A stretch of DNA of 64,000 nucleotides from an uncultured delta proteobacterium (GTDB lineage Bacteria; Myxococcota_A; UBA9160; SZUA-336), in assembly GCA_963704165.1 (NCBI GenBank), contig CAVPHD010000003.1, positions 192,001 to 256,000 of the forward strand, in the 5' to 3' direction. A model generated the notes under the pieces. It was given only the letters and a program-made list of their open reading frames with translations, did no database searches and was not told the DNA's origin. A program made the position numbers and the translations under genes. Every line of letters starts with the position of its first letter. Positions within the stretch are counted from its first letter, which is position 1. Positions 1 through 6,274 of this stretch are shown in pieces.

Positions 1-546
1 ATTCTGCGTGCGCGCCGCCTCCTTCGTCGACAGCCCCGCACCCTGTAGCGCGGCCGTCACGTGCTTGCCGAAGTCGATGGGCACGACCCGGTACGCCGCG
101 AGACTTCCATCCTCGAGCGGATTCGAGTCGTAACCGGCGAGCTGAAGATTCCTGGGCTTGAAGGCACCGATGTTGACGATCAGCAGCCCCCCCCGCCTCA
201 GATCGGGAAGGTTCGTGCGCAACGCCGCGGGATTCATCGCGACGAGCACGTCGGGCTCGTCTCCCGCGGTGAAGATCTCCTTCGACGAGAACTGCAGCTG
301 GAATCCCGAGACGCCGGCGAGCGACCCCGCGGGTGCTCGGATTTCCGAGGGAAAGTCCGGAAACGTCGCGATGTCGTTTCCGTACAGCGCGGCGGTGCGC
401 GTGAACTCCGTGCCGGTCAGCTGCATGCCGTCGCCCGAGTCGCCGGCGAACCGGATCACGACCGAATCGAGTCGCGTCACCGGTCTTTCTGGATCTGATG
501 CTGCCTCGTCCGGGTGCCCGTTCGCGTTTGCCTGCTGGTCTTCCAT
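1..546 (-). CDS. korA: 2-oxoacid:ferredoxin oxidoreductase alpha subunit (N-terminal part; runs off the window)
   Basis: Manual translation from ATG 546: MEDQQ...VVIRFAGDSGDGMQLTG...FPDFPSEIRAPAGSLAGVSGFQLQFS..., the typical OFOR alpha N-terminus. Not in the ORF track because there is no stop in the window. Confidence 0.88.
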   Translation of the reverse strand, partial: MEDQQANANGHPDEAASDPERPVTRLDSVVIRFAGDSGDGMQLTGTEFTRTAALYGNDIATFPDFPSEIRAPAGSLAGVSGFQLQFSSKEIFTAGDEPDVLVAMNPAALRTNLPDLRRGGLLIVNIGAFKPRNLQLAGYDSNPLEDGSLAAYRVVPIDFGKHVTAALQGAGLSTKEAARTQN

Positions 547-705: not shown

Positions 706-1869
706 GTGCGCGAAGTCTACATCATCGAGGCAGTGCGAAGTCCGATCGGCAAGCGCGGTGGAGGGCTTGCGGGCATGCACCCCGCCGACCTGCTCGGCAC
801 GGTGCAGAAGGCCGCGTTGGACCGCAGCGGAGTCGCCCCCGAGGCGATCGGCCAGGTGCTCGGCGGCTGCGTGTCGCAGGTCGGCGAGCAGACCTTCAAC
901 ATCGCCCGCCTCGCATGGCTCTCGAAGGGCCTGCCGATGGACGTCGCAGCGACCACGCTCGACGCGCAGTGCGGATCGAGCCAGCAGGCGACGACGCTCG
1001 CCACCGGCTTGGTCGGCTCCGGACTCGAAGACATCGTTCTCGCCTGCGGGCTCGAGATGATGAGCCGCGTGCCGCTCGGCGCGGCGATGAAGGGCGGCTC
1101 ACCGATCCCGAAGAGCTACCTCGAGCACTACCCGCTCTCCTCGCAGTTCGGCGGCGCGGAGATGATCGGCAACGAGTACGGCATCACGCGCGAGGACACC
1201 GATCGCTTCGGCCTGCGCAGCCAGGAGCTCGCGGCGCGCGCGTGGGAGGAGAAGCGCTTCGAACGCGAGGTGATTCCGATCGCAGCCCCCGGAATCGATC
1301 CGGAAGGCAAACCGACCGGCGACGTCGTGCGCGTGGTTCGCGACGAGGGTCTGCGCAAGACCTCGCTCGAGAAGCTCGCGTCGCTCGCGCCCGTGCCCGG
1401 ACAGAACCTGCACACCGCGGGAACGTCGTCGCAGGTCAGCGACGGTGCAGCCGCGCTGATCCTGGCGTCCGCGGACGGCGTGAAGCGTCTAGGGGTGAAG
1501 CCACGCGCGCGCATCGTCGACTCGGTGCTCGTCGGATGCGATCCCGTGACCATGCTGAAGGGACCGATCCCTGCGACGCAGAAGGTGCTCGGCCGCGCGG
1601 GACTGAAGATCGAGGAGATGTCGGTCTACGAGGTGAACGAGGCGTTCGCGTCGGTCGTGCTCGCGTGGATGAAGGCGTGCAAGCCGGTCGAGGAGCGCGT
1701 GAATCCGAACGGCGGCGCAATCGCGCTCGGTCATCCCACGGGCTGCACCGGCGCGAGGTTGATCACGTCGGCGCTCCACGAACTGGAGCGAACGGGCGGC
1801 CGCTATGGCCTGGTCAGCATGTGCTGCGGCGGGGGCCTCGGCACCGGCACGATCATCGAGCGCCTCTAG
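706..1869 (+). CDS. Acetyl-CoA C-acyltransferase (thiolase), FadA5/steroid 3-ketoacyl-CoA thiolase-like
   Basis: QCGSSQQA catalytic Cys, NEAF, GAIALGHP and CCGGGLG motifs; RBS-like AGAGGGG upstream. Confidence 0.93.
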   Translation: MREVYIIEAVRSPIGKRGGGLAGMHPADLLGTVQKAALDRSGVAPEAIGQVLGGCVSQVGEQTFNIARLAWLSKGLPMDVAATTLDAQCGSSQQATTLATGLVGSGLEDIVLACGLEMMSRVPLGAAMKGGSPIPKSYLEHYPLSSQFGGAEMIGNEYGITREDTDRFGLRSQELAARAWEEKRFEREVIPIAAPGIDPEGKPTGDVVRVVRDEGLRKTSLEKLASLAPVPGQNLHTAGTSSQVSDGAAALILASADGVKRLGVKPRARIVDSVLVGCDPVTMLKGPIPATQKVLGRAGLKIEEMSVYEVNEAFASVVLAWMKACKPVEERVNPNGGAIALGHPTGCTGARLITSALHELERTGGRYGLVSMCCGGGLGTGTIIERL

Positions 1870-1896
1870 CCCCTCCGAGCGCGGAGCCGGCGCGCG

Positions 1897-3516
1897 CTAC
1901 GCGTAGCGATTCGCCGCGAACTCCTGCGCGCTCTTGTAGTCCGCCTTTCCGTTGGGCGCGCGGAACATCGCGGGTACCGCGAAGACGCGCTTCGGAAGCT
2001 TGTACGCCGCGAGCCGCTCGCGCGTGTGGGCGCGAAGCTTCTCCTCGTCGAGGATCGCGCCGTTGCGGAGCTGCACGACCGCTGCGACGGCGTTGCCCCA
2101 GCGGTCGTCGGGAACGCCGACCACGAGCGCGTCCTCGACGTCGGGGTGGGTCTTCAGCGCCTCCTCGACCTCCTCGGGGTAGATCTTCTCGCCCGCGGAG
2201 TTGATGCACGCGCTTCCGCGTCCGAGCAGCGTCAGCGTGCCATCGGTCTCGACCGTGCACCAATCGCCGGGAATCGAGTAGCGAACGCCGCCGATCGTCG
2301 GGAACGTCTTCTCGCTCTTCTCCGGATCCTTCCAGTACCCGACGGGGATCGGTCCGCTTCGCGCGATGAAACCCTTCTCGCCGCTTCCCGGCGCGACTTC
2401 ACGGTGATCCTCGCTGAAGACCTTGCAGCGCTCGCCGATCGTGAACTTCGCGGTCTTCACCTCGCCCGCAGCGGTCATGATCGAGGAGCCGAAGCCGACC
2501 GCCTCCGACGAGCCGAACGAGTCCGTGAGGATCATGCCGGGGTTGTGGCGCAAGAGGCCCTTCTTCACCTCGGTGCTCCACATCACGCCGGAGGAGACGA
2601 TCACCTTCACCGACGAGATGTCCCAGCGCCCCGGGTCCTCGTCGAGCGCGTTCAGCATCGGCTTCGCGAACGCGTCGCCGACGATCACGAGCGAGTTCAC
2701 CTGATGACGCTGAACGGTGTCATAGAGCTCGGCGGGGTCGAACCTGTGCCCCGGGGTGGTGACGATGCAACCGCCGGCGGTGATCGTCCCGATCGCCGTG
2801 AAGAGTCCCGTTCCGTGCATCAGCGGGCAGCACGGGATCTGCTTCGAGAGCGGCCCCGCCTTCACCACGTTCGAGACGTGCTCTGCGAGCGTCTCGGGCG
2901 CGACGCCGCCGTTCGCCGGCGCGTTCGCACCCGCGGCGAGCGCGTGCCAGAGGTCGTTCGCGGCCCACATCACGCCCTTCGGCATGCCGGTCGTCCCGCC
3001 GGTGTACAGGAAGAGCAGATCCTTCCCGTCGCGCGGAATCCCGAGCGCGCGCCCGTTGCCGGAGGTCGCGAGGGATTCGTAGGGGATCGCGAAGTCCAGC
3101 AGCTCTCCGCCGACCTGCACCCAGGTGGTCACCTTCGGGAGGCGCGCGTGCAGCTTCGCGACCCGGTCCGCGAACTCACCGTCGAAGACGACCACCTTCG
3201 CGTCGGAGTTGTCGAAGATGTACCAGAGCTCCTCGTCGAGGTAGCGGTAGTTCACGTTCACGTGCACGAGCCGCGCCTTGAAGCACGCCGCCAGCGTCTC
3301 GACGTATTCGGGACGGTTGCGCAGGTAGAAGCCGACCTTGTCGTCGGCCGTCCCGCCGCGCGCGAGAAGCTGCGCGGCGAGGTTGTTCGAGCGGCGCGCG
3401 AATTCGCTCCACGTCGTGACGACGTCGCCGTGGATCAGCGCGGGCGCGTCCGAGGCGTAATCCGCGTCGAGCGCGTCGAGGATGTCGCCGAGGTTCCAGT
3501 TCGGGGCCGTGGGCAT
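1897..3516 (-). CDS. Acyl-CoA synthetase (AMP-binding), FadD19-like
   Basis: YTGGTTGMPKG, VNVNYRY, DSFGSSE, GRGSACINSAGEKIYPEEVE, NGKADY motifs; start set at MPTAPNWN after a GGAGG RBS. Confidence 0.92.
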   Translation of the reverse strand: MPTAPNWNLGDILDALDADYASDAPALIHGDVVTTWSEFARRSNNLAAQLLARGGTADDKVGFYLRNRPEYVETLAACFKARLVHVNVNYRYLDEELWYIFDNSDAKVVVFDGEFADRVAKLHARLPKVTTWVQVGGELLDFAIPYESLATSGNGRALGIPRDGKDLLFLYTGGTTGMPKGVMWAANDLWHALAAGANAPANGGVAPETLAEHVSNVVKAGPLSKQIPCCPLMHGTGLFTAIGTITAGGCIVTTPGHRFDPAELYDTVQRHQVNSLVIVGDAFAKPMLNALDEDPGRWDISSVKVIVSSGVMWSTEVKKGLLRHNPGMILTDSFGSSEAVGFGSSIMTAAGEVKTAKFTIGERCKVFSEDHREVAPGSGEKGFIARSGPIPVGYWKDPEKSEKTFPTIGGVRYSIPGDWCTVETDGTLTLLGRGSACINSAGEKIYPEEVEEALKTHPDVEDALVVGVPDDRWGNAVAAVVQLRNGAILDEEKLRAHTRERLAAYKLPKRVFAVPAMFRAPNGKADYKSAQEFAANRYA

Positions 3517-3605
3517 CTGAGATTCCTCCGAGGGAGCGCGGATGATACCCGAAACGCCCTGGGGCCCGATGACGGGATGGCTTCGATCCTCCCGCTGACG
3601 CGCGG

Positions 3606-4223
3606 TCAGCGGACCGGATCGGCGCCGAGCGGTCCGACGGTGGTCTCGACCACCGTGCGCAGGAAACGCGCGATCTGCTCGGGTGAGCGCCCCGCGAATT
3701 TCATCTGCGCGACGGCGGGCGCGATGGCGATGATCATGCGCGCGTCCTCCTCGGCATCGACGCTCGAGGGGACCGTGCCCTCCGCCTTGCCGCGCTCGAC
3801 GATGCGCGCGACTCGATCGGTCAGGCGATCCTGAAATGCGACGAAGCGAGGCCAGAGCTCGTCGCCGATCGCCGCGCTGCACTCGAGCCAGATTCGAGCG
3901 TACTCGGGGTGGGCGTCGATCGATTCCTCGAACGACGTCGCGAGTGCGAGCAATACACGCGGAGCCGGCCGATCGAGGGCGAGCGTCCGATCGACCATCG
4001 CGAGGAAGAACCGCTCGACCTCGTCGAGGACCGCCGTCACGAGCGCCGCCCGGGTCGGGAAGTAGACGAACACGGTGGAGACCGCGACGCCGCTCTGGCG
4101 GGCGATCTCCGCGTGCCGTCCCGCAGCGATCCCGCGTCGTCCGAAGACCTGGATCGCACAGGCGAGGAGCTGGGCTCGGCGGGCCTCAGGATCGAGACGG
4201 GATGCACGGGCTCGCTTCGCCAT
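3606..4223 (-). CDS. TetR-family regulator, HapR/SmcR/LuxR(Vibrio)-like
   Basis: HTH RLDPEARRAQLL..VFGRRGIAAGRHAEIA..VAVSTVFVYFPTR and C-terminal IWLECSAAIGDELWPRFV, which parallel HapR segments as recalled (GHADIA..VSVATVFNYFPTR; VWFEWSASTRDEVWPLFV). Alternative start 4238. Confidence 0.85.
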   Translation of the reverse strand: MAKRARASRLDPEARRAQLLACAIQVFGRRGIAAGRHAEIARQSGVAVSTVFVYFPTRAALVTAVLDEVERFFLAMVDRTLALDRPAPRVLLALATSFEESIDAHPEYARIWLECSAAIGDELWPRFVAFQDRLTDRVARIVERGKAEGTVPSSVDAEEDARMIIAIAPAVAQMKFAGRSPEQIARFLRTVVETTVGPLGADPVR

Positions 4224-4244: not shown

Positions 4245-4264
4245 TATTGACAGACTTCTCAATT
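4245..4264. promoter_or_regulatory. Putative TetR operator 1, overlapping a TTGACA -35 hexamer (4247-4252)
   Basis: TATTGACA-GACT-TCTCAATT, an imperfect 8-4-8 inverted repeat in an AT-rich divergent intergenic gap. Confidence 0.6.
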
Positions 4265-4278
4265 GAGCGGATAAGATT

Positions 4279-4298
4279 TATTGATAATGCTATCAGTA
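4279..4298. promoter_or_regulatory. Putative TetR operator 2 (LuxR/SmcR-box-like palindrome)
   Basis: TATTGATA-ATGC-TATCAGTA, an 8-4-8 inverted repeat with one mismatch. Confidence 0.7.
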
Positions 4299-4324: not shown

Positions 4325-5515
4325 ATGGCCGACTCGGTGAGAATCCACGAACTGCCGACGCTCCCGACCGACATCCCGCTGCACGACGCGGAGCTCTCGC
4401 ACTACGAGGACCGCTACCGCGGCGACCTTCGCCGCTGGTCCGAGATCCTGCAGCGCAACGCGGAGCGCATGAAGGCGGGAAAGTACTCGCTCCACTGGCT
4501 CGAGCAGGACGGTCCGAACTGGGGCCGCCGGGCGAAGCCCTCCTCGCGCGGCCTCACCTACACCGACATCAACCAGGTGCCCGGGTACGGCGACGTGCCC
4601 GCGGTCGCCGACTGGCTGAACTTCGCGCCGCGCGGCTCGGTGCGCGAACCGTATCGCGCCGACATGCCGACGGTCGACGACTACACCGTGCTCGACGGGC
4701 GCGAGCTCTGGGCCGAGAACGTGATCACGCTCTACGAAGAGGCGAAGGCGCGCCAGTGGAACGCGACGCGCGACATCGAGTGGAAGGAGCTCGAAAAGCT
4801 CCCCGACGATCTCGAGAAGGCGACCTGCCAGCTCTACACGTTCCTGACCGAGGTCGAATTCGTCGCCGGCGACTTCCCGGCCAAGTGGCTGGTGCGCATC
4901 CCGCAGGACTTCTTCGAGGTGAAGAGCTTCCTCACCACGCAGATCATGGACGAGGCGCGGCATCAGGAGGTCTTCCGCAAGCGCGCGATCGCGGGCGGCG
5001 GCCTGCGGCACTCCTCACCCGGCTTCGAGTGGGCGCTGAAGGCGATCCTCGACGCGCCGACGCACACGATGGGAACGTTCCTGCTGAACGTGCTCGGCGA
5101 GGGCCTCGTGCTCTCCGTGTTCCGCTCCGGCGAGATGATCGCCAAGACGCACGTCGACAAGGAGATCTTCCGACGCTGCCTGCAGGACGAGGCCCGCCAC
5201 GTCTCGTACGGCGTGATGCAGCTCAAGTGGTATCTCGATCACCACTCCGATCGCGCCGGAGCGCTCGAGGAGCTGCACCGCTTCGCCGACGTCGGCGAGC
5301 AGGTGATCCTGACCGCCTTCACCGAGTCCGCGCTGGTGGAGCCGCTCGCCGTGCTGCTCGGCGGCGGGCTCGACAAGATCGACCAGGGGATGCAGGGCTT
5401 CACCAAGCTCTGGTCGATGTTCATGGAGGAGTATCTGCAGCGCTGCGAGCGCGCGGGCTTCGATCGACGCGGTCGCATCAAGCTGCCGATCACCGCGCCG
5501 TGGGGAGGACGCTGA
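4325..5515 (+). CDS. Ferritin-like diiron-carboxylate protein (putative oxygenase/hydroxylase)
   Basis: Two DEARH (ExxH) motifs, each preceded by a helix Glu (LTEVEF; VLGEG); GGAGG RBS before ATG 4325. Confidence 0.85.
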   Translation: MADSVRIHELPTLPTDIPLHDAELSHYEDRYRGDLRRWSEILQRNAERMKAGKYSLHWLEQDGPNWGRRAKPSSRGLTYTDINQVPGYGDVPAVADWLNFAPRGSVREPYRADMPTVDDYTVLDGRELWAENVITLYEEAKARQWNATRDIEWKELEKLPDDLEKATCQLYTFLTEVEFVAGDFPAKWLVRIPQDFFEVKSFLTTQIMDEARHQEVFRKRAIAGGGLRHSSPGFEWALKAILDAPTHTMGTFLLNVLGEGLVLSVFRSGEMIAKTHVDKEIFRRCLQDEARHVSYGVMQLKWYLDHHSDRAGALEELHRFADVGEQVILTAFTESALVEPLAVLLGGGLDKIDQGMQGFTKLWSMFMEEYLQRCERAGFDRRGRIKLPITAPWGGR

Positions 5516-5516
5516 G

Positions 5517-5981
5517 ATGGCCGACACGATCCGATTCCCGTCGGTAGAGTGGTTTCAGCGCCTCGCGCTCCTGATGCACGAGAGCCGCACGCGCCAGATC
5601 CAGCTCGGCTACGTCGATTGCACGGTGCTCTTCACCGTGACCGACGGAGGCACGGGCGGTCGCCCTTGGTCCGCGCTCGTCACGTTCGAGGAGTTCGACG
5701 CGATCGATGTGCGCGAGGCCAGCGCGGCCGATGCCGCGCGCGCGGACTTCGCGCTCGAAGCGACGCTCGCGACCTGGCGCGAGATGATCGAGAGCATCGC
5801 CGCGGGCGGCGGGCGGCCCGACCTCGACCACACGCTGAACCGGCTGTCGCACCTCGGTTCACCGCTGCGGGTGAGCTCGGACGACGTGCTCAAGACGGAC
5901 CTCTACTTCCGCTTCAATCAGAGCCTGCAGGAGTTCGTCAACGCGTCGGCGGCGTTCCGCACCCAGATCGCGAGTCCGTAG
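5517..5981 (+). CDS. Hypothetical protein, SCP2 (sterol carrier)-like fold
   Basis: N-terminal FPSVEWF and ADFALEATLATWREMI are typical of bacterial SCP2-like proteins; starts 1 nt after the diiron gene stop, with a GGAGG RBS. Confidence 0.65.
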   Translation: MADTIRFPSVEWFQRLALLMHESRTRQIQLGYVDCTVLFTVTDGGTGGRPWSALVTFEEFDAIDVREASAADAARADFALEATLATWREMIESIAAGGGRPDLDHTLNRLSHLGSPLRVSSDDVLKTDLYFRFNQSLQEFVNASAAFRTQIASP

Positions 5982-5992
5982 GACCCACGGCG

Positions 5993-6274
5993 GTGGCGCG
6001 CAGCGGCCACTTCTACATCGACGAGACCTGCATCGGCTGCGGGGCGTGCGAGCACGCCTGTCCGGGAAAGGTCGACGCGATCTATCCGGTCGCGGACGAC
6101 TTCCTCGGCCGCTTCGCGATCGTGCTCGAGAGCTGCATCGACTGCGGCAAGTGCACTCCGCTTTGCCCGGTGGCCTGCATCCACGACGCGCGGAGCGAGG
6201 GGATCGTCGCGGGCGCCGGCGGTTACACGCGCATCCGGGAGCTCCAGGCCTGGGCCAAGGAGCGGATCGGTTAG
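5993..6274 (+). CDS. 2x[4Fe-4S] dicluster ferredoxin
   Basis: CIGCGACEHACP and CIDCGKCTPLCP; GTG start at 5993 inside track ORF 5549..6274. Confidence 0.88.
   Translation: MARSGHFYIDETCIGCGACEHACPGKVDAIYPVADDFLGRFAIVLESCIDCGKCTPLCPVACIHDARSEGIVAGAGGYTRIRELQAWAKERIG

Follow-up and report, generated by a model that had tools for sequence, protein, structure and literature searches.

A widespread, uncharacterised cassette of a ferritin-like dimetal protein, a predicted SCP2-fold protein and a dicluster ferredoxin in an uncultured delta proteobacterium

What is the function of three tightly packed genes that encode a ferritin-like protein, a small SCP2-like protein and a dicluster ferredoxin in an uncultured delta proteobacterium? 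These genes lie in the window analysed here, a 64,000-nucleotide stretch of contig CAVPHD010000003.1 (positions 192,001 to 256,000, assembly GCA_963704165.1), for which a first-pass annotation had proposed a three-component diiron hydroxylase or desaturase that it did not recognise as a characterised system. The cassette is a real, widespread and uncharacterised ferritin-like dimetal system. The evidence leans, if only slightly, towards a soluble hydroxylase that is inducible, activates oxygen and acts on a hydrophobic substrate, for example, an alkane or an alkyl chain. The cassette works most plausibly like R2lox or the hydroxylase of a bacterial multicomponent monooxygenase (BMM), and is a member of neither group.

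The cassette and its partner proteins

The cassette consists of the following genes:

4325..5515, + strand: alpha gene, ATG to TGA, 396 amino acids (aa); predicted ferritin-like dimetal-carboxylate protein with a structured N-terminal arm
5517..5981, + strand: middle gene, ATG to TAG, 154 aa; predicted SCP2 fold
5993..6274, + strand: ferredoxin gene, GTG to TAG, 93 aa; two CxxCxxCxxxCP motifs, predicted 2x[4Fe-4S]

The open reading frame coordinates were reproduced, with gaps of 1 nt (alpha/middle) and 11 nt (middle/ferredoxin), and a purine-rich stretch resembling a ribosome-binding site lies 5' of each of the three starts. Linkage and neighbour counts in related loci were obtained from the best 80 of 425 confirmed genome loci, a sample biased toward close kin. 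The alpha, SCP2-like and ferredoxin genes occur in this order in 72 of the 80 loci (the ferredoxin being scored by at least one cysteine motif); thus, the co-occurrence implied by the first-pass annotation is found elsewhere, and the trio is not a chance grouping. All but one of the 68 loci for which at least 1.3 kb of downstream DNA was available have a ferredoxin gene after the SCP2 gene. Cassettes were found in at least five phyla (Myxococcota, Binatota, Pseudomonadota, Actinomycetota and Chloroflexota), and metatranscriptome contigs of relatives (from two runs that contained 6% of the words), which are not evidence of expression or habitat, span the three genes and both junctions.

The middle protein has no Pfam match, and PF02036 (SCP2) is matched by one of 72 relatives, weakly (E = 0.009). 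Its AlphaFold model (predicted local distance difference test score, pLDDT, 96.9) matches SCP2 structures in Foldseek (E = 9 × 10−6) and aligns with 2cx7 over 126 residues in VIA-align (Z = 13.7, root-mean-square deviation (rmsd) 2.5 Å), the top ten VIA rows all being SCP2 or SCP2-domain proteins. The predicted SCP2 α/β fold is in line with the resemblance noted at first reading. The middle protein belongs to a separate family, with 191 relatives when clustered at 50% identity, that almost always adjoins an alpha gene; in the survey of the window's class described below, an alpha gene lies beside the SCP2-like gene in 52 of 55 high-scoring loci. The SCP2 protein is the constant partner of alpha, and the ferredoxin is not constant. 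The most conserved residues of the middle protein include the polar motifs H105 T106 L107 N108, D128, R132 and Q138, which, from their conservation, would fit a fixed subunit or protein interface as well as a lipid tunnel. An alignment search of longer proteins found no fusions with a domain of this family, which is weak evidence. Two long matches were unrelated repeat proteins, and an alpha fragment joined to an SCP2 fragment (P0170) is probably a deletion or an assembly artefact rather than a genuine fusion.

The ferredoxin scores over the cut-off of Pfam Fer4 families, and both CxxCxxCxxxCP motifs are kept in its relatives, in agreement with its annotation as a dicluster protein; its C-terminal tail is conserved in a clade-specific manner. 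Close-relative ferredoxins score 123–177 bits against that of the window; at the equivalent place of the cassette, Chloroflexota, distant Actinomycetota and locus L098 hold visibly different ferredoxins (17–43 bits), suggesting from sequence that the electron donor was recruited to the cassette repeatedly. Together with the presence of a ferredoxin in 67 of 68 loci, this makes the donor appear to be selected for. In one distant actinobacterial clade (L096, L099–L101, L105, L107 and L108), a conserved gene of 63–78 aa with Cys/His motifs lies between the SCP2 and ferredoxin genes, with no Pfam or NCBIfam match for the one copy scanned, and the ferredoxins carry additional C-terminal CxxC pairs.

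Gene calls together with Pfam and NCBIfam scans of the flanks detected no NAD(P)H reductase gene within or beside the cassette, as first annotated; the ferredoxin would therefore be reduced by a host enzyme. Genes for the alpha and beta subunits of a 2-oxoacid:ferredoxin oxidoreductase lie about 4 kb from the cassette (window positions 1–459 and upstream, G000:C3:189605-192459) and are a possible source of reductant, although this linkage is not conserved. Upstream are also a steroid 3-ketoacyl-CoA thiolase (NF005889) and an acyl-CoA synthetase (NF005863), each over cut-off (positions 706–3534), and a convergent histidine phosphatase gene bounds the cassette downstream; the GC content of the cassette resembles that of the neighbouring DNA. 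None of these four neighbours is conserved beside the cassette in related loci, and all were rejected as parts of it. Flanking genes vary among the 80 loci and are not conserved in most of them, the window's clade included; thus, the cassette is a self-contained unit. Within the genus of G274, 7 of 300 genomes carry it (one genome was not scored), including a record of the cultured strain Mycobacterium nebraskense DSM 44803 (L066). The copies of L066, L286, L296 and L297, four genomes of one genus, are 99.96–100% identical over 2.8–8.1 kb, pointing to recent transfer. They adjoin genes that we take to be insertion-sequence-like, and the cassette of these four genomes would be a mobile element.

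The alpha protein among ferritin-like enzymes

All six ligands that had been read in alpha as E..DEARH..E..DEARH (E178, E210/H213, E259 and E289/H292) are invariant in a 59-sequence alignment, and the E/ExxH/E/ExxH set is complete. E176 lies two residues ahead of the first ligand; 124 of 127 alphas have it, whereas the metal-less paralogs (betas) described below have lost it, which makes it a candidate catalytic residue. Alpha does not reach the curated cut-off of any Pfam or NCBIfam model, in accord with its not being an ortholog of a characterised enzyme; the best match is to the R2lox model NF006200 (30.8 bits, cut-off 194). The alpha family comprises at least 1,689 proteins among 7,997 candidates scored, labelled 'hypothetical' or 'ferritin-like' with the exception of one stray label; among homologs with a named source, the nearest are for the most part from Myxococcota and 'deltaproteobacterial' metagenome-assembled genomes, which makes such an organism the probable source of the window. 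Plasmids yielded only distant ferritin-like matches of alpha (5 records, 25–30% identity) and none of the SCP2 protein. A literature search that did not cover supplements and subscription journals found no paper describing the family.

Shorter ferritin-like genes without the N-terminal arm were observed elsewhere in the same genome (G000:C11:228452-230499, C1:211530-212501, C4:324082-325164 and C11:157098-157871), including one tandem pair, and the three of these short paralogs that were scanned pass the AurF Pfam cut-off. This genome holds an expanded and unexplained repertoire of dimetal enzymes.

The AlphaFold model of alpha has a pLDDT of 89.5 and is ordered from about residue 18 onwards; Foldseek gave no match to it at E ≤ 0.001. 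In VIA-align, it scores highest with ADO (Z = 19.4, rmsd 2.3 Å over 208 residues) and a VlmB homolog (19.0), followed by MMOH alpha (18.4), R2lox (17.5), MMOH beta (17.4), Paa (14.7–14.9), BoxB (13.1), desaturases (12.6 for an acyl-ACP (acyl carrier protein) desaturase, and 10.9) and AurF (11.9). The modelled fold would thus place alpha among the large ferritin-like oxygenases with no clear winner, and several chemistries have to be weighed.

The top rank of the ADOs raises the prospect of aldehyde deformylation, in which a fatty aldehyde supplied by an adjoining alcohol dehydrogenase (ADH) would yield a Cn-1 alkane and formate. ADO is, moreover, ferredoxin-dependent, according to a passage of PMC9314684. 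However, ADO is a protein of about 220 aa without an N-terminal arm or partner subunits, an aldehyde-oxidoreductase-like gene adjacent to some cassettes would compete for the aldehyde, and none of 59 alpha family members matches Ald_deCOase, so that we regard this reaction as quite unlikely. Both ADO and VlmB/AurF, which give the best core-fold matches, differ from alpha in showing only 14–18% identity, in lacking an SCP2 partner and in having sub-threshold Pfam matches or none. An AurF- or VlmB-like N-oxygenase acting on an amine would be consistent with a VlmB homolog being the best PDB sequence match of alpha (E = 8 × 10−5), with matches of AurF (PF11583) to 31 of the 59 members (best E = 2 × 10−5; none for the window alpha itself) and with one Atlas cluster that is 50% AurF. 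AurF itself is nevertheless among the poorer fold matches, no biosynthetic genes recur nearby in the loci surveyed and the SCP2 partner is left unexplained; the probability of this reading is accordingly very low.

The desaturase half of the first-pass proposal, whereby the SCP2 protein would hold an acyl chain or a lipid and the dimetal site would abstract two hydrogens from it, draws on a ligand pattern common to acyl-ACP desaturases and on the fatty-acid binding of SCP2 proteins recorded in the PDB titles of the matched structures. Desaturases also use ferredoxin and have no dedicated reductase gene. Their fold scores are, however, clearly below the 17–19 of the best matches, none of the 59 family members has a desaturase or Ald_deCOase Pfam match at E ≤ 0.1 and no ACP or lipid-synthesis gene is conserved near the cassette in the loci surveyed, whereas the patchy distribution and the ADH neighbours suggest catabolism. 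We therefore consider desaturation unlikely, and the hydroxylase half of the proposal, which the neighbouring genes moderately favour, fares better.

R2lox comes closer. It shares with alpha the all-Glu ligand set and a Phe after the first ExxH, and 59 of 59 alpha family members match NF006200, if weakly (best E = 2.5 × 10−10), compared with 222–232 bits for true R2lox from two mycobacterial genomes used as a reference check. The R2lox cross-link pairs a Tyr five residues before the third Glu with a Val three residues after the first (Y162/V71 in the true R2lox of locus L200, taken as reference). This Tyr and this Val are absent in 127 of 127 alphas, in which position 254 is L/M/I/V and position 181 is A/P; an alternative register for the Val, position 179 (F/M/L/Y), again has no Val. 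Thus, as judged from sequence, alpha is not an R2lox, from which it is further set apart by a 130-residue N-terminal arm, its own SCP2 family and the existence of alpha/beta forms. F217, present in 127 of 127 alphas as a Phe likewise is in R2lox, occupies what we take to be the position of the radical Tyr of R2 (after the first ExxH), and alpha fails the model of class I ribonucleotide reductase R2 (PF00268, 15 bits vs. 33.6). Because the all-Glu set with Phe 217 is also the pattern of the Mn/Fe R2lox, a Mn/Fe site appears as possible in alpha as Fe/Fe. Of the term 'diiron' in the first-pass annotation, then, the ferritin-like dimetal-carboxylate part stands, the iron/iron part was only inferred, and 'dimetal' is the safer word.

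The cluster type has a precedent: haloarchaeal R2lox genes often share a cluster with genes for a ferredoxin, a sterol carrier and a sterol-binding protein, and are hexadecane-induced, according to the portion of PMC9314684 that cites Kumar 2020. In Geobacillus, an R2lox clustered with alcohol and aldehyde dehydrogenases is presented as an alkane hydroxylase, with alkane loss reported for crude GkR2loxI lysates, in an excerpt of PMC10867098. The initial impression of a combination without a characterised counterpart thus holds in that there is no characterised ortholog, but not with respect to the haloarchaeal cluster. What is new here is a divergent HapR-like TetR regulator with two operators and sister cassettes with a metal-less beta.

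Sister cassettes with a metal-less paralog

The same genome contains two further SCP2-like genes, each accompanied by an intact alpha and a paralog without all six ligands (beta), in opposite gene orders:

G000:C2:55650-59087 (L014): SCP2-like gene, intact alpha and metal-less beta, no ferredoxin; follows a different TetR gene
G000:C6:56295-58970 (L015): SCP2-like gene, intact alpha and metal-less beta, no ferredoxin

Beta is a conserved family (148 matches). Across 147 betas, a set that includes many close relatives, other residues take the place of the ligands (Ala for E210 in 136); 40 other positions, the N-terminal arm included, show at least 90% conservation in alpha as well as in beta, and some hydrophobic positions are conserved in alpha only. 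Non-catalytic subunits of multicomponent oxygenases typically lose the ligands and keep structural positions. With six ligands lost and 40 structural positions kept, beta would resemble such subunits, and the alpha/beta design would, by analogy, be like that of methane monooxygenase or PaaA/C.

To survey the window's class, a single-protein query, which proved insensitive (8 of 151 genomes), was replaced by an SCP2-anchored alignment search, which gave matches in 52 of 151 genomes. The loci examined were 60 stretches covering 62 of 75 rows, after setting aside 3 rows of the own genome and 10 near contig ends. The 55 high-scoring loci have the arrangements SCP-beta-alpha (22), SCP-alpha-beta (12), alpha-SCP-ferredoxin (11), alpha-SCP (5), ferredoxin-alpha-beta'-SCP (1), SCP-alpha at a contig end (1) and SCP alone (3); in 4 of the 5 low-scoring loci, the SCP-like gene stands alone. 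Thus, 'three-component' describes the window cassette correctly and is one architecture only, the commonest in the class being the SCP2-like gene with alpha and a metal-less beta and without ferredoxin (34 loci vs. 11). Ferredoxin and the beta subunit hardly ever occur in the same cassette.

In two trees, the betas form one group (Shimodaira-Hasegawa-like approximate likelihood ratio test (SH-aLRT) support 99–100) joined to the alphas that they are partnered with (99), the two together standing apart from alphas of the ferredoxin type; both trees are quick ones with SH-aLRT support only, rows thinned by identity and an uncertain root. Because betas join their partner alphas, beta likely arose by duplication within the alpha family. 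Two intact alphas stand in tandem at L080:4815-7011, and at L191:5533-7957 a separately degenerate paralog on a long branch has a ferredoxin upstream. The L191 copy perhaps represents a second origin of a beta-like paralog, and both loci are possible intermediates in the evolution of beta.

The likeness to BMMs (sMMO, phenol hydroxylase and ToMO/T4MO) includes a large ferritin-like catalytic subunit with high fold scores against both MMOH chains, a small third protein and, in the sister cassettes although not in that of the window, a metal-less paralog as putative partner. The differences are as follows: the cassette has no FAD/[2Fe-2S] reductase gene, its small protein is predicted to have the SCP2 fold and none of the 59 alpha members matches Phenol_Hydrox (PF02332). 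The Thr-Asn pair that we take to be the helix-E motif of BMMs is absent, alpha having L263 followed by S/T/D264. No conserved BMM-like cluster with an NADH reductase and a regulatory protein was found among the 80 and 62 loci. Since beta arose, as far as the trees indicate, inside this family, the alpha/beta likeness to BMMs is parallel rather than inherited.

The pairing of a catalytic subunit with a metal-less paralog equally recalls PaaA/PaaC, and with it the possibility that the enzyme, like PaaABCE or BoxAB, epoxidises or otherwise oxygenates the ring of an aryl-CoA or aromatic compound. BoxA has a dicluster ferredoxin domain, and the window ferredoxin matches the BoxA-type TIGR03224 weakly; the acyl-CoA synthetase and thiolase upstream in the window would also suit such a pathway. 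However, the latter are not conserved beside the cassette, ring-cleavage genes do not recur in the loci surveyed, the fold matches to Paa and BoxB are weaker, and alpha has no Paa or BoxB family match in the Pfam and NCBIfam scans, nor does the cassette have a reductase or pathway genes. This function seems to us rather improbable. A lipid-binding partner that serves a hydroxylase, as proposed for the cassette, is also known from Coq7-Coq9 and UbiJ/UbiT. They belong to different families (UbiJ SCP2 vs. the middle protein, Z = 7.7), and there are no ubiquinone genes near the cassette.

The paralogs also bear on whether alpha oxidises a substrate at all. Dicluster ferredoxins are typically low-potential and O2-sensitive, and most loci have no conserved downstream pathway, as would be expected of an O2 or peroxide sink or of a lipid-peroxide reductase driven by a low-potential ferredoxin. 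By contrast, three paralogous cassettes in one genome, a dedicated local regulator and the hydrophobic positions conserved in alpha only point to substrate specialisation and make a sink very unlikely.

Regulation, neighbouring genes and proposed function

Upstream of alpha, the window contains a divergent regulator gene and two predicted operators:

3606..4223, − strand: TetR-family regulator gene of LuxR/HapR/OpaR type, divergent from the cassette (NF040929, E = 1 × 10−26)
4245..4264, no strand: predicted operator 1, a 20-bp imperfect palindrome of the Vibrio MQSR-box type (14/16 pattern positions)
4279..4298, no strand: predicted operator 2 (15/16 pattern positions)

The regulator scores 93.9 bits against NF040929, below its cut-off of 350, and a homolog adjoins the alpha gene in 29 of the 80 loci. 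Such a palindrome lies upstream of alpha in 27 of the 29 loci with the TetR compared to 3 of 48 without a called TetR (in 3 of the 80 loci the upstream DNA was too short). Because the pattern was derived from the same sites, the count for loci with the TetR has some circularity; the controls are the without-TetR group and a genome scan, in which, under its prefilter, operators 1 and 2 are the only sites matching at least 13/16 positions in the 3.87-Mb genome. Within operator 1 is a perfect TTGACA, and the operator overlaps a sequence that resembles a promoter of the regulator gene (4262–4234). Because its palindromes are unique in the genome and tied to loci with the TetR, the regulator would serve this locus alone, which would suit an inducible catabolic module, and is likely a local repressor of the cassette. 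The predicted operators of this TetR, which is not from Vibrio, differ little from the box of the Vibrio quorum master regulator, for which an excerpt of PMC3323551 supplied the comparison pattern. At L082, L083, L089, L090, L092, L093 and L098, mostly from Chloroflexota, a PAS-LuxR regulator stands in place of the TetR.

Among neighbouring genes, only Zn alcohol dehydrogenases exceed a rough background, with 15 of the 80 loci vs. 4.6% of same-size windows of the genome analysed here, an enrichment that is overstated, the ADH loci being partly close kin. Actinobacterial cassettes gain a two-component pair, an NDMA-dependent ADH (over cut-off in 3 of 5 ADHs tested) and a second, canonical SCP2 gene (6 of 7 match PF02036, 2 over cut-off) whose small product has no detectable relation to the middle protein (hhalign, 1%). 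In four Acidimicrobiia loci (L070–L072 and L074), the ferredoxin gene is followed, in the same orientation, by an ADH and a molybdenum aldehyde-oxidoreductase-like gene; the ADH is of the NDMA-dependent type over cut-off in the two tested (L070 and L072), and the aldehyde-oxidoreductase-like subunit is below cut-off. At L293, a CYP153-family P450 (E = 5 × 10−169 to CYP153A7), a [2Fe-2S] ferredoxin and a truncated ADH are co-oriented upstream of the cassette. These related loci and one anecdote fit the usual route from hydroxylase to alcohol, aldehyde and acid, and the neighbours moderately favour a hydroxylase over a desaturase. At L067:5989-8372, the cassette lies between presumed arabinosyltransferase-like genes and a presumed acyl-CoA carboxylase/polyketide synthase pair.

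In the hydroxylase mechanism that we favour, alpha would act as a homodimer in the window cassette and as an alpha/beta heterodimer in the sister cassettes. It would hold two metal ions (Fe/Fe or Mn/Fe), receive electrons from the ferredoxin encoded beside it and oxygenate a C-H bond of a hydrophobic substrate. The SCP2 protein, a predicted dedicated partner, would bind alpha and hold or deliver the substrate; the HapR-like TetR would derepress on sensing substrate or product, and the alcohol formed would pass to alcohol and aldehyde dehydrogenases.

Several observations weigh against this mechanism. The fold search has no power to separate a hydroxylase from a deformylase, N-oxygenase or epoxidase, the top Z scores differing by about 2, and the helix-E pair of BMMs is missing. 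The flanks vary, the ADH excess is inflated, genes for acyl-CoA dehydrogenase, ligase, hydratase and SDR occur in the 80 loci about as often as in the background, and the CYP153 context is a single locus. In addition, no dicluster ferredoxin adjoins alpha/beta cassettes in the best 80 of 326 metagenome loci, many of them on short contigs, and no close homolog of the window ferredoxin is present in 5 genomes where only alpha/beta loci were seen; thus, the electron source of the alpha/beta cassettes is unexplained.

A bolder proposal, which we put forward tentatively and hold to be rather doubtful, is that of a new class of soluble multicomponent monooxygenases, apart from sMMO/BMMs and R2lox. 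Its members would hydroxylate unactivated alkyl C-H bonds with an obligate SCP2-fold substrate-handling subunit and a 2x[4Fe-4S] donor under the control of a relative of the Vibrio quorum regulators sensing a lipid-like ligand, and would, independently of the BMMs, have gone the same way from homodimer to alpha/beta heterodimer at least once, perhaps twice, with all stages extant.

Few families of soluble dimetal oxygenases are known, and these enzymes carry out C-H reactions that rank among the most difficult in biology. The alpha family is widespread and unnamed, and the cassette, being compact (2 kb) and present in a record of the cultured M. nebraskense strain, is directly testable. The TetR with its operators offers a simple system for finding the natural ligand of HapR/SmcR-type proteins and a lead on HapR/SmcR origin, and the coexisting alpha-only, alpha-alpha and alpha-beta cassettes provide a living model for the gain of a non-catalytic subunit in multicomponent monooxygenases. 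The cassette could reveal an overlooked route of hydrocarbon or lipid oxidation in soils, sediments and wastewater, as well as a new biocatalyst.

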